64,000 nt of DNA, from contig CAVWPA010000003.1 in the NCBI GenBank assembly GCA_963756875.1, forward strand, positions 96,001 through 160,000. The letters run 5' to 3'. The notes beneath the pieces are model-generated. The model made no database searches, was not told the DNA's origin, and saw nothing but the letters and a program-made list of their open reading frames with translations. Both the position numbers and the translations under genes were made by a program. This document shows, piece after piece, positions 41,859 through 45,868 of this stretch. Position 1 is the stretch's first letter, and each line of letters begins with the position of its first letter. The DNA is from an uncultured Verrucomicrobiae bacterium. GTDB taxonomy: Bacteria; Verrucomicrobiota; Verrucomicrobiia; Chthoniobacterales; UBA10450.

Positions 41859-42428
41859 CTACGTGATCTGCTGGTGCTCCTGGAAAAGCTCCTGGTATTT
41901 GCGTTCCAGCTCCGCGTAACGGCGCTCGACTTCCTCCAGCGCGCGACGTTCTTCACGCAAACTTTGCTCCAGGTCGCGAATGCGTTCCGGCATGTCGATT
42001 GAAATGCCGCTTGCTGCGGGCTCGTTGGAAATGTTGGGCTCCGTCTCCTCACTCGAGGCGAAGGGAGTTTGGTCGCCGAGTTGCAGCATGGCCGACATTT
42101 CCAGGACCTGCCGCCGCGTTCCGTCGCAGGAATTGATTACGAATGTTTCTTCATTGATTTCGCCAAGGCGAATAAACTCCTGGATCGCACCAAGCGTGGT
42201 CGGCCCGTAGTAGCGTTCACTGGTAATTTCCACCAGCCAATCCATACCCAGTTCCGGGACCATCGGCGCTTTGATCCAGCTTCTCTGATCGCCCGAAACC
42301 ATGTCGTGCGGGGCTACCTGGGCGGCCGATGCCCACCGCGCAAGCTGTTCAAACGAAAGTGGCCCGAAAATGGTGCCGTCTTCGTGCTTGCGCAGGAACC
42401 AGCTTTGAGTCGTGGCCGATTCTTCCAT
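41859..42428 (-). CDS. Hypothetical protein with two GYF-like repeats and a C-terminal coiled coil
   Basis: W...FGPLS and W...YGPTTL repeats; heptad-rich C-terminus. Confidence 0.55.
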   Translation of the reverse strand: MEESATTQSWFLRKHEDGTIFGPLSFEQLARWASAAQVAPHDMVSGDQRSWIKAPMVPELGMDWLVEITSERYYGPTTLGAIQEFIRLGEINEETFVINSCDGTRRQVLEMSAMLQLGDQTPFASSEETEPNISNEPAASGISIDMPERIRDLEQSLREERRALEEVERRYAELERKYQELFQEHQQIT

Positions 42429-42440
42429 TAATCATTCGCC

Positions 42441-42923
42441 TTAAGGGGACGCGGCGGGCGCAGGCGTGGGTGAAGGTGGAATTAAAATGGTTTGGCCGGC
42501 CTGCAACCTCAGCGGGTTGTCGATGTGATTGTATTGCTGCAGCTCGCCCACGCTCACGTTGTGCGCCCTGGCGATGGAAGTCAGTGTCTCGCCGCGCCCG
42601 ACAATGTACGAGTTTTCAGCTCCCGCTTTCGCCGGCTCGACGATCGCGACTGAAGCCCTCTTCGCCGGCGTTGGCGTGGCTTCTCCGATCATCACGCCGG
42701 GACGCATCTTCGCAATCTGCCGCTCGAGCTGGAGGATATGTTGCGAGAGCGCGTCGATCTTTGCATTTTGTTCGTCGATTTTTTTGGCCAGCGCCCGGAG
42801 CTCGCTGGTCTGCGTCGGCTTGGCCGTTGGTTCGACCGGCCTCGGAGCAAAAGTTTGGGCCAAAGCCGCCCGACCGGGAAATGCCACCAGAACCAGCGCG
42901 ACCAGGGCAGCGGCGGATTTCAT
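42441..42923 (-). CDS. Secreted coiled-coil plus LysM protein
   Basis: Signal peptide from ATG 42923; YIV.RGETLTSIAR...N.I.NP..L.AGQ.I.IP. Confidence 0.85.
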   Translation of the reverse strand: MKSAAALVALVLVAFPGRAALAQTFAPRPVEPTAKPTQTSELRALAKKIDEQNAKIDALSQHILQLERQIAKMRPGVMIGEATPTPAKRASVAIVEPAKAGAENSYIVGRGETLTSIARAHNVSVGELQQYNHIDNPLRLQAGQTILIPPSPTPAPAASP

Positions 42924-42983
42924 TCCCCTGATTTTGGCATCACCGGCTTTTTCTGGCAAGCCGGTCGCGCTCTTATATGCGGC

Positions 42984-43264
42984 TAGGAGGCTGTTGAAAT
43001 GCTGGAATGGGTCGCGCGTAGAGGCAGAAGGGGCGGATGGCAAGAAGCGAGTGAGGCGCATCCCCTTTAGCGGGCTGCAACGAGCGAGTGACGCGGCCAG
43101 CCGCCCCTTCTGCCTCGCGCCCGGTGGGTTGCGTCGTTTTTGGCGTTGGCCAACGTTGCTCGCTTGGCCGAGATCGCTGCGGATATCGGCGCTGCGCTCG
43201 CGCCTTGGCCAACGCCAAAAATCAACAGCAACTCGGCCCACTCCAGTATTTCAACAGTCTCCTA
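42984..43264. mobile_element. MITE-like element, 281 bp
   Basis: 28-bp terminal inverted repeats (25/28), TA at both ends, two long internal hairpins, no credible ORF. Confidence 0.7.
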
Positions 43265-43300: not shown

Positions 43301-43477
43301 ATGCCGGAGCGCACTCAAAAACCAATCGATCCTGCTCCGTGGGGCCCGAAAGAAGGCGAGGGCGGCGGCCCGCGGTCGCCGGATATTTCCAGGCCCGACA
43401 CAAAGGATCTCCTAAAAAAGATGCGCAAGGTCGATCCCAATCAATCCAAGCGCTATCGTCAGCGCACGGGTCAATAA
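43301..43477 (+). CDS. ubact: Ubiquitin-like protein UBact (Pup analogue), 58 aa, not in the ORF track
   Basis: MPERTQKPIDPAPWGPKEGEGGGPRSPDISRPDTKDLLKKMRKVDPNQSKRYRQRTGQ*; C-terminal YRQRTGQ; immediately upstream of proteasome beta. Confidence 0.9.
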   Translation: MPERTQKPIDPAPWGPKEGEGGGPRSPDISRPDTKDLLKKMRKVDPNQSKRYRQRTGQ

Positions 43478-43491
43478 ATGGAGTCTCTTCG

Positions 43492-44292
43492 GTGACGTTT
43501 GACCAGAATTTCTCTGGCGCGACGGAGGATTTTCCCGCGCTTCTGCGCCGGAAAGGCCTGCTGCAACAGGTGCCCCAACTGAATCAGACTGCCGTCGACC
43601 CGGCATTTGTGCAGACGGAATCCACTACGATTCTGGCCTTCAAATTCGCAGGCGGCGTTTTAGTGGCCGGCGACCGGCGCGCCACCTCTGGCAACACCGT
43701 GGTTTACGATCGGGCGGACAAAGTGCTCGAAATCGACCGGCACTCCATCATGGCGATCGCCGGTGTGCCGGCCACCGCATGGGAAATGGCGCGCGTGCTC
43801 GAGCACTCGTTTCAATATTTTCGCCGCACCCAGTTGCAGGAGATGAGCGTGGATGGAAAAGTCCGCGCCCTTTCCAAACTGCTGCGCGATAACTTCGGGC
43901 TCGTAATGAGAGGTGTCGGCGTAGTAGTGCCTATTTTTGCGACGTACGATTCGAATTCCTCGTCCGGAGCACGGCTTTACTTTTACGATGCGATGGGTGC
44001 GCAATTCGAAGTGACAGACTACGCTGCGACCGGCTCTGGGTCGCCGGCCGTGCGCGGTATCCTGTATTACGAAAATCACTGGGGCGGCAAGCCGTTACAG
44101 GAACTGAACGAAGAGGACGCTATCACGCTGGCCTTGCGCGCGCTGGACACCGCTGCGGAAGCAGACACCTCTACCGGCGGCGTCGATCGCGGTGGCAGGA
44201 TTTTTCCGATCATCAAGATCGTGTCGCGTGAAGGAATTACCACGCTCGCGGACGAAAAAATCGCCGCCGTTTTTCAGAAAACTGTCGCATGA
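43492..44292 (+). CDS. prcB: 20S proteasome beta subunit
   Basis: GTG start after GGAG; propeptide then TTILAFK...GDRRAT; ATGSGS; TGG. Confidence 0.9.
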   Translation: MTFDQNFSGATEDFPALLRRKGLLQQVPQLNQTAVDPAFVQTESTTILAFKFAGGVLVAGDRRATSGNTVVYDRADKVLEIDRHSIMAIAGVPATAWEMARVLEHSFQYFRRTQLQEMSVDGKVRALSKLLRDNFGLVMRGVGVVVPIFATYDSNSSSGARLYFYDAMGAQFEVTDYAATGSGSPAVRGILYYENHWGGKPLQELNEEDAITLALRALDTAAEADTSTGGVDRGGRIFPIIKIVSREGITTLADEKIAAVFQKTVA

Positions 44293-45068
44293 TCGAGGAA
44301 CCTTATCGGTGGGTCGAGGCGATCGCCAACCGGCGCGAGTACATCGAAACTCAACTGGCAACGGGGCGGCCAATCGCGGCGATCGGCTACCGCGACGGCA
44401 TTTTGTTCTTAACGCTCGGTCGAACGCGGCAAAAGATTTTCGAGATTTACGATCGCGTCGCGATGGGGGCAATCGGGCATCCGGGCGATATCGAGCGGCT
44501 GCGCATGGCGGCGATCGAACTGGCAAGCACGGAAGGGTTCACCCGCTCGGCGGCAGACGTTTCGTTGCGGCGTCTGGCGTACTACTCGCTTAGTCCCTTG
44601 ATGAAAAGCGCGTTCGAGCAGGTTTACGGAGCGCCATATCTGGCCCGGCTCCTTTTTGCCGAGGTTGGTTCGAAACCGGAGGAAGATTTATTTTTGCGGG
44701 TCGATTACGACGGTGCCATTGCCACGAACGGTGCCTCTGTTTCACAACGACAGCGTGATTTTGGTGTTCTGGGCGCAAACCGTCGGTCGGCGGAGCTGAT
44801 GGAATCGTTTTTGCAAAAGGAAAACGCCGCGGGCGCGAGTCTGGAAGAGGCGATCCAAGTAGCGATGAACGCGTGGACTGTAGGCCAGATGGCGACCGGC
44901 GAAGATGCGATAAAGGAATTGCCGAAGTCCGACGCAATTGCCACGTATCGACAAAATCAACTCGGCGAAGCCGGCGTGGAAGCTGCCATTTTGGAACGTG
45001 ACAACAAAACGGCGATTCGTTATCGCATCTTGTCCGACGAAGAAGTTCACTCTTTAATCAAGGCCTAG
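44289..45068 (+). CDS. prcA: 20S proteasome alpha subunit
   Basis: KIFEIYDRVAMGAIG...DIE.LR; ATGA overlap with the beta gene; bacterial alpha-type N-terminus. Confidence 0.85.
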   Translation: MIEEPYRWVEAIANRREYIETQLATGRPIAAIGYRDGILFLTLGRTRQKIFEIYDRVAMGAIGHPGDIERLRMAAIELASTEGFTRSAADVSLRRLAYYSLSPLMKSAFEQVYGAPYLARLLFAEVGSKPEEDLFLRVDYDGAIATNGASVSQRQRDFGVLGANRRSAELMESFLQKENAAGASLEEAIQVAMNAWTVGQMATGEDAIKELPKSDAIATYRQNQLGEAGVEAAILERDNKTAIRYRILSDEEVHSLIKA

Positions 45069-45073
45069 ACGCT

Positions 45074-45868
45074 ATGTCTCGACTGCGACTACCGGTTCCG
45101 GCGGGTACGCAAGATTTTGTCGCCTGGTTTGGCTTGCTGCTCATGGTCGTATCGTTTGCCTGGTTGCAGTGGGTTACGCGGCCGCCATCCTCTTCGGCGC
45201 GCTCAACGGCCTCGCCCGGCCCATTCTCGCTTGTGGTAATCGATCCCGGGCATGGAGGGCAGGATTCCGGTGCGATGTGTGGCGGAGTGCTTGAGAAGGA
45301 TCTGACGCTCGATGTCGCACAGCGGATCGACCGGCTGTTGCAGGCACAAGGGATCGCCACGCTCATGACGCGGACCGGCGACAGCTATCTTTCGCTGGCC
45401 GATCGCGCCGCGATCACCAATCGGGCGCGCGACTGCATTTTCGTGAGTATTCACTTCAACGAAGGGAGCAAACCGGTTTCCAGCGGGGTGGAAACATATT
45501 ACGCCGAGCACCAGATGCCCGCCAAGGAGCCGCTCGTTTCCTGGCTCCCCTTTCTGCAGCGCACAGCTTTGGAGACACCGAATTTCCAGAGCCAAAGCCT
45601 CGCCGGTTTCATTCAGCAAGCGCTGGTGACCGGCACCCAGGAGACAGACCGTGGAACAAAGGCCAGCCAGTTTTTTGTGATCGCGAACGTGCGACACCCC
45701 GCGGTTCTGGTGGAGGGAGGCTTCCTGAGCAACAAGGAAGAAATCGGCAAGTTGCAGAACCCGGATTACCGCGAGCAAATGGCCGCTGCCATCACGCAAG
45801 GAATCGCCCGCTATCGCGACGTATTGAAGCAACGCCAGGGAATACTGGCCGCCACCGGCGGCCGCTGA
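45074..45868 (+). CDS. N-acetylmuramoyl-L-alanine amidase (Amidase_3)
   Basis: IDPGHGG.D.GA, EK..TL, VSIHFN, LVEGGF.SN. Confidence 0.9.
   Translation: MSRLRLPVPAGTQDFVAWFGLLLMVVSFAWLQWVTRPPSSSARSTASPGPFSLVVIDPGHGGQDSGAMCGGVLEKDLTLDVAQRIDRLLQAQGIATLMTRTGDSYLSLADRAAITNRARDCIFVSIHFNEGSKPVSSGVETYYAEHQMPAKEPLVSWLPFLQRTALETPNFQSQSLAGFIQQALVTGTQETDRGTKASQFFVIANVRHPAVLVEGGFLSNKEEIGKLQNPDYREQMAAAITQGIARYRDVLKQRQGILAATGGR

Follow-up and report, generated by a model that had tools for sequence, protein, structure and literature searches.

A UBact modifier gene upstream of prcB-prcA in a Chthoniobacterales genome and the dispersal of its predicted partner genes

Introduction

UBact is a short protein with an R-[TS]-G-[EQ] C-terminus, and the canonical layout of its genes is a single six-gene cluster, mpa-dop-ubact-prcB-prcA-pafA. 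The name reportedly goes back to Lehmann, Udasin, Livneh and Ciechanover in 2017 (BBRC 483:946), who are said to have described the UBact-proteasome system of Gram-negative phyla. Here we analyze a 58-codon open reading frame (ORF) that lies directly upstream of the proteasome genes prcB and prcA in the genome of an uncultured Verrucomicrobiae bacterium of the order Chthoniobacterales (assembly GCA_963756875.1). The stretch under study, referred to as the window, comprises 64,000 nucleotides of contig CAVWPA010000003.1 (C3:96001-160000), and the ORF had been singled out by an original prediction made from its letters alone. We conclude with high confidence that this ORF is UBact, a Pup-like modifier gene of Gram-negative phyla, that it forms the first cistron of a ubact-prcB-prcA operon, which probably includes an amidase gene as well, and that a Pup-like mechanism is likely.

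With the described UBact-proteasome system, the locus shares the modifier family, the R-T-G-[QE] ending and the place of the tag gene directly before prcB-prcA, and both Dop and an Mpa-like ATPase are encoded in the genome. In contrast to the canonical cluster, the genes occupy three or four separate loci here and family-wide, a cell-wall amidase gene follows the proteasome genes where pafA would be, and the assembly yielded no PafA. The other close comparison is the actinobacterial Pup-proteasome system (Pup, Dop, PafA, Mpa/ARC and PrcBA), with which the enzyme families and the presumed chemistry are shared: solved structures of Dop, Mpa and PrcB align to the Dop homologue (over its whole length), the ATPase and PrcB of this genome, respectively. 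A further likeness to Pup is that the last residue of the tag varies between Gln and Glu from lineage to lineage.

Related genes have been recorded in this part of the bacterial tree before. Pup-like tags that terminate in G[EQ] appear in a listing for the verrucomicrobia-chlamydia clade (Iyer et al. 2008, PMC2588565), and sporadic Dop/PafA homologues in Verrucomicrobia are mentioned in a study of Dop and PafA (Hecht et al. 2020, PMC7947786). Candidatus (Ca.) Udaeobacter copiosus is described as encoding all bacterial proteasome components (Brewer et al. 2016, bioRxiv 10.1101/053942); the proteasome passages of that preprint name neither UBact nor the arrangement of the genes. It belongs to the same lineage as our genome, the nearest prcB relatives of the present locus (80 kept out of 432 confirmed stretches) being recorded as Chthoniobacterales, Ca. 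Udaeobacter, Spartobacteria and Verrucomicrobiota metagenome-assembled genomes.

Results

The ORF runs from ATG 43301 to TAA 43475-43477 and encodes the product MPERTQ...RYRQRTGQ, whose RTGQ ending fits the UBact motif. A profile search of the ORF yielded 82.1 bits with the Pfam model of UBact, PF20513 (cut-off 27.8, E 2.4e-23), and 82.7 bits with the NCBIfam equivalog model NF033388 (ubiq_like_UBact, cut-off 35). These matches bear out the original prediction, which had read a 58-residue UBact gene at this position, 14 bp before a prcB gene that overlaps prcA, and had proposed a search with UBact profiles. Unlike Pup, the tag has no match to the Pup model PF05639 (E<=0.1), nor does this model match anywhere in the genome, and no second UBact match was found in the genome. 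The UBact family is already known and covered by curated models, and the present gene is a further member of it.

We compared the gene with the UBact loci of 25 relatives, leaving aside the unpublished UBact-positive genomes G002 and G007. Protein identity to these relatives ranges from 66 to 97%, and the C-terminal segment R51-Y-R-Q-R-T-G57 is invariant in all 26 aligned sequences. The last residue of the tag is Q in 20 of the relatives and E in the other 5; here it is Gln58. For the 15 of 25 relatives that could be aligned without gaps, differences in the UBact frame at codon positions 1, 2 and 3 amount to 93, 68 and 434, respectively, and the differing codons comprise 355 synonymous as compared to 136 non-synonymous changes. 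Because the differences concentrate at the third position and synonymous changes outnumber non-synonymous ones, the UBact frame is under purifying selection. Positions 43301-43477 are thus a genuine UBact gene rather than a chance ORF.

The genes that follow are arranged as an operon. The UBact stop codon and the GTG start of prcB at 43492 are separated by a 14-nt gap, which holds a Shine-Dalgarno-like GGAG, and prcB and prcA overlap by ATGA at 44289-44292 (prcB TGA at 44290-44292, prcA ATG at 44289). The order UBact-prcB-prcA is found in all 25 relatives' loci. Among solved structures, PrcB best matches the PrcB proteins of Rhodococcus and M. tuberculosis. PrcB Thr45 falls opposite the first residue of the mature 1q5q_H chain, and the Asp of GDRR as well as the Lys of DKV are conserved; PrcB is predicted to carry a 44-residue propeptide with Thr45 as the nucleophile, the Thr/Asp/Lys triad (Thr1, Asp17, Lys33) of the Ntn-hydrolase fold being present. 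The PrcA call, with its lower profile scores (Table 1), is supported by the position of the gene and by its presence in 25 of 25 relatives' loci. In two of the 25 relatives, prcB is frameshifted and occupies two frames (G020, L031 4646-5426; G015, L015 4662-5416), and G005, G023 and G028 have similarly split genes of the Pup_ligase family (PF03136); these split genes could be sequencing errors or pseudogenes. Downstream, an Amidase_3 gene starts 5 nt 3' of prcA and is also located downstream of prcA in 21 of the 25 relatives' loci. It is probably co-transcribed with ubact-prcB-prcA.

Table 1. Features of the UBact locus and of the distant Dop/Mpa-like locus. Positions are those of the window unless a contig is named.
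Feature	Position	Strand	Evidence
GYF_2-domain protein, C-terminal coiled-coil-like region	41859..42428	-	PF14237 41.4 bits; adjoins the LysM gene
LysM secreted protein, divergent	42441..42923 (probable start)	-	PF01476 52.8 bits; listed ORF 42441-43241, 266 aa
Nested palindromic repeat, 281 nt	42984..43264	none	Inverted repeats, arms 31 (outer), 21 and 17 nt
ubact, 58-aa ubiquitin-like modifier	43301..43477	+	PF20513 and NF033388 above cut-off; third-position bias
Shine-Dalgarno-like GGAG	43480..43483	+	8 nt before prcB start; read from sequence
prcB, 20S proteasome beta subunit	43492..44292	+	PF00227 105.9 bits; TIGR03690 167.6 bits, under cut-off 191.9
prcA, 20S proteasome alpha subunit	44289..45068	+	PF00227 24.6 bits, barely over cut-off 22.4; TIGR03691 89.9 bits (cut-off 139.05), weak but full-length, residues 11-257 of 259
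Amidase_3, N-acetylmuramoyl-L-alanine amidase	45074..45868	+	PF01520 172.9 bits
Mpa-like AAA ATPase	C3:1382144-1383829		TIGR03689 463.1 bits (cut-off 504.75); directly upstream of dop
Dop deamidase/depupylase homologue	C3:1383951-1385474		TIGR03688 494 bits, just above cut-off 492.3; PafA model TIGR03686 389.1 bits (cut-off 551.3); only PF03136 gene in genome

The remaining components were sought across the whole assembly, which measures 2.69 Mb in 3 contigs and is 87.6% complete. The window contains no match to the Pup_ligase family and none of the Mpa type. Genome-wide, such matches are confined to C3:1.382-1.385 Mb, apart from a generic AAA match at C3:60222. Here, a Dop homologue lies next to an Mpa-like ATPase gene, on the same contig as UBact and 1.24 Mb away from it, and for this reason we regard the UBact-proteasome system as split. 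The alignment of the Dop homologue with solved Dop (4b0r, 5lrt) spans residues 1-466 and takes in both the DHAHPEYSTPE motif and the loop region; with solved PafA, it begins only at residue 78. A screen for neofunctionalization revealed three conservative private substitutions at near-invariant columns of Dop. The ATPase has Mpa as its best solved match (7ljf, 7px9; E 7e-105, residues 52-545), and the catalytic motifs of the system are intact. The C-terminus of the ATPase reads ...SGVI. We read the ATPase tails of relatives where Mpa adjoins dop, as it does in 12 of the 20 examined (one copy looks broken), and a V/I-I ending, mostly S-G-V-I, is kept in all 11 that are readable to the gene end. 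Directly after dop, we observed a transposase gene of the tyrosine type associated with repetitive extragenic palindromes (REP) at C3:1385537-1386013 (-; NF047646 90.1 bits, cut-off 80).

These results agree with two statements of the original prediction, namely that the window lacks PafA/Dop and ARC/Mpa genes and that the system is split. Its genome-wide search for the partners succeeded in part, as Dop and the Mpa-like ATPase were found and PafA was not found in the 87.6%-complete assembly. The proposal that the terminal Gln implies a Dop-type deamidase was right insofar as the genome encodes a Dop-type enzyme; the Gln is, however, no predictor of it. Dop-type genes are also present in all 5 relatives with a Glu-ended tag, and Dop is therefore not tied to the Gln ending. 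In the Pup system, Dop has a second, tag-removing role, which fits its retention alongside Glu-ended tags.

To place the locus in its lineage, we surveyed 41 genomes from the order, a set that contains the present genome as well as the unpublished G002, G007 and G014. UBact, PrcB and the Mpa-like ATPase each have matches in 28 of them, and the Pup_ligase family has matches in 30. All four components are confined to 6 of 16 families (f1, f5, f6, f7, f8 and f15), with none of them found in the other 10 families among the 41 genomes. Most positive genomes carry PF03136 genes of two score classes at separate places, one of ~540-560 bits (Dop-like) and one of ~390-430 bits. For three proteins of the lower class, the PafA model matches best, from end to end, and the Dop-loop region is lacking; the remaining PF03136 genes were classed by score alone. 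Wide distances separate the PafA-type, Dop and UBact loci on large contigs; contig C6 of G012, for example, carries the PafA-type gene at 0.32 Mb, the Dop gene at 1.48 Mb and the UBact gene at 1.95 Mb. In the relatives where Mpa does not adjoin Dop, it is located elsewhere. The split layout is the norm of the whole family and not a quirk of this genome. Since the components co-occur in the same 6 families yet occupy separate loci, they are co-inherited despite being dispersed. This dispersed layout is a lineage-wide variant in gene order and not a new system. In most relatives examined, the PafA-like gene is adjoined by a DUF5069 gene (PF16798, 134-141 bits; for example L007 5883-6305 and L012 7593-8012) and by an unassigned gene of ~390 aa.

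Upstream of ubact, the window differs from the loci of the relatives by a nested palindromic element that ends 37 nt before the gene. Its predicted RNA fold has an energy of -179.7 kcal/mol (z -10.6). Other copies are located at C3:1751050-1751329 (88.6%) and C3:1778264-1778541 (72%), with a partial copy at C1:524599-524803, and the element is not present at any of the 25 relatives' UBact loci. Rfam has no family for it, a search giving merely hairpin noise far under the gathering scores. The element looks like a low-copy insertion resembling a miniature inverted-repeat transposable element or REP, and it may displace the promoter of the operon. Beyond it lies a divergent LysM gene, the listed start of which is GTG 43241. 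In 21 of the 25 loci, the relatives align from residues 91-146 onward only. Met107 is followed by the signal-peptide-like MKSAAALVALVLVAF, and a promoter-like site (42959-42931, -) is situated just upstream of it. Translation probably starts at Met107 (42923), which would make the listed ORF 106 codons too long. The operon is thus bordered by cell-wall genes on both sides, Amidase_3 and the divergent LysM gene, each of which is found in 21 of 25 relatives' loci; this may point to a link in function or be no more than conserved gene order.

Discussion

By analogy with the Pup system, the identified genes suggest the following pathway. The Dop homologue would deamidate Gln58 of UBact to Glu and would later remove the tag, and a PafA-type ligase would join the side-chain carboxylate of this Glu to substrate lysines. 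Tagged proteins should then be recognized and unfolded by the Mpa-like AAA ATPase and degraded by the PrcA/PrcB 20S particle. Several observations weigh against this picture. The Mpa-like ATPase, PrcB and PrcA all score under the NCBIfam cut-offs for their actinobacterial equivalogs. Moreover, actinobacterial Mpa carries a C-terminal GQYL proteasome-docking tail, in place of which the ATPase ends in ...SGVI and the lineage in ...[ST]G[VI]I. Full-text literature searches found no bench experiments on any UBact system, and the biochemical steps therefore rest on analogy. Finally, a PafA-type gene is missing from the assembly, in which PF03136 and TIGR03686 match Dop alone. A tblastn search with the PafA-like proteins of 8 relatives (E<=10) likewise returned Dop alone (35-41% identity) and one spurious match. 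The latter, at C1:136106-136438 (E 1e-4 to 6e-3), was considered as a PafA remnant and rejected, as it contains an in-frame stop and runs antisense to a GspE/PilB-like ATPase gene.

One alternative concerns the tag gene itself: the 58-codon ORF could be a chance frame, with prcB truly starting at GTG 43339 and carrying a long N-terminal extension. This longer ORF is indeed open and in frame with prcB, offset by 2 from the UBact frame. A chance frame would, however, have to account for the matches to two curated UBact models at E ~1e-23 and for the concentration of substitutions at third codon positions of the UBact frame (93/68/434). The closest relative, G017, has UBact and prcB in one and the same frame, with the UBact stop preceding the conserved V-T-F-D-Q start of PrcB by six codons. 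A long extension of prcB is impossible there because this stop codon blocks the prcB frame. In addition, for 7 of the 25 relatives the alignment of PrcB begins at residue 1 of the protein that starts at GTG 43492. We therefore give the chance-frame explanation practically no credence. As judged from the sequence comparison, GTG 43492 is the true start of prcB and the 43339 start is spurious, as the original prediction had held.

The other alternative accepts the UBact gene and takes the missing ligase at face value. PafA would be truly lost, and UBact would either no longer be conjugated, as part of a decaying remnant, or work without a dedicated ligase. Beyond the fact that the assembly contains neither a PafA-like gene nor a remnant of one, the places where PafA resides in relatives speak for this explanation. 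In 9 of 17 relatives' PafA loci, the gene is found 3-7.5 kb past the orthologue of C1:622119-623288, and three of those 9 have the orthologue of C3:1293439-1294632 on the far side. Our genome has both flanks in the interior of contigs, where they abut unrelated housekeeping genes, MqnA- and MqnC-like. Next to C1:636498 and C1:588563, the sites that correspond to two other arrangements are contiguous and free of PafA, and the PafA-adjacent DUF5069 and ~390-aa genes have paralogue-level matches only (47-53% and 27-30%, respectively). On the other hand, the position of PafA is variable, with 8 of the 17 relatives carrying it elsewhere. In G017, which is the closest genome by UBact and PrcB identity, PafA lies within a 200-kb stretch that has almost no counterpart here, 9 of its 240 ORFs (>=150 aa) being matched at >=40% identity over >=60% of their length.

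The assembly is, moreover, only 87.6% complete. Summing (1 - completeness) over 25 family genomes predicts ~2.4 misses per gene, and the observed misses are 2 for the PafA type, 1 for the Dop type and 2 each for UBact, PrcB and the Mpa-like ATPase. Among 24 family relatives, 22 have both PF03136 classes, a count by score that includes two split genes and one contig-edge fragment, while G001 has the Dop class only and G013 the PafA class only. As G001 also lacks the block-A gene that neighbors PafA in most relatives, an assembly hole is more likely for it than a second loss. The other components of our genome are intact and conserved, and the three private substitutions of Dop are unlike what a long-standing loss of the ligase would leave. 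Because the family-wide misses match incompleteness alone, we do not claim a real loss of the ligase. The original prediction had taken a genome-wide lack of ligase genes to argue against active conjugation; here, the absence of PafA is indistinguishable from a gap in the assembly, and we consider true loss unlikely, if worth keeping in mind. A bolder version of it holds that the genus lost PafA while selection maintained the 20S core, Dop, the Mpa-like unfoldase and an intact, Gln-ended UBact, so that UBact would act without a dedicated ligase, with a Dop-type enzyme ligating it or with the tag serving as a non-covalent adaptor. In the laboratory, Dop becomes a ligase after a few substitutions (Hecht et al. 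2020), and even so this scenario strikes us as very improbable. A UBact system working in a Pup-like manner is the explanation that we prefer.

At the level of annotation, the analysis corrects the gene calls of the window, adding the 58-codon gene, shortening prcB to its true start and probably shortening the LysM gene. Any member of the UBact family is a candidate for bench work, and the present copy offers nothing in this respect that others do not. Its sole open lead is the unfound ligase, the absence of which would matter only if confirmed in a closed genome. Across the abundant soil lineage grouped around Ca. Udaeobacter, the components of the UBact-proteasome system are inherited together although their genes are scattered over three or four loci, and annotation that relies on gene neighborhood will therefore under-call the system in these genomes.

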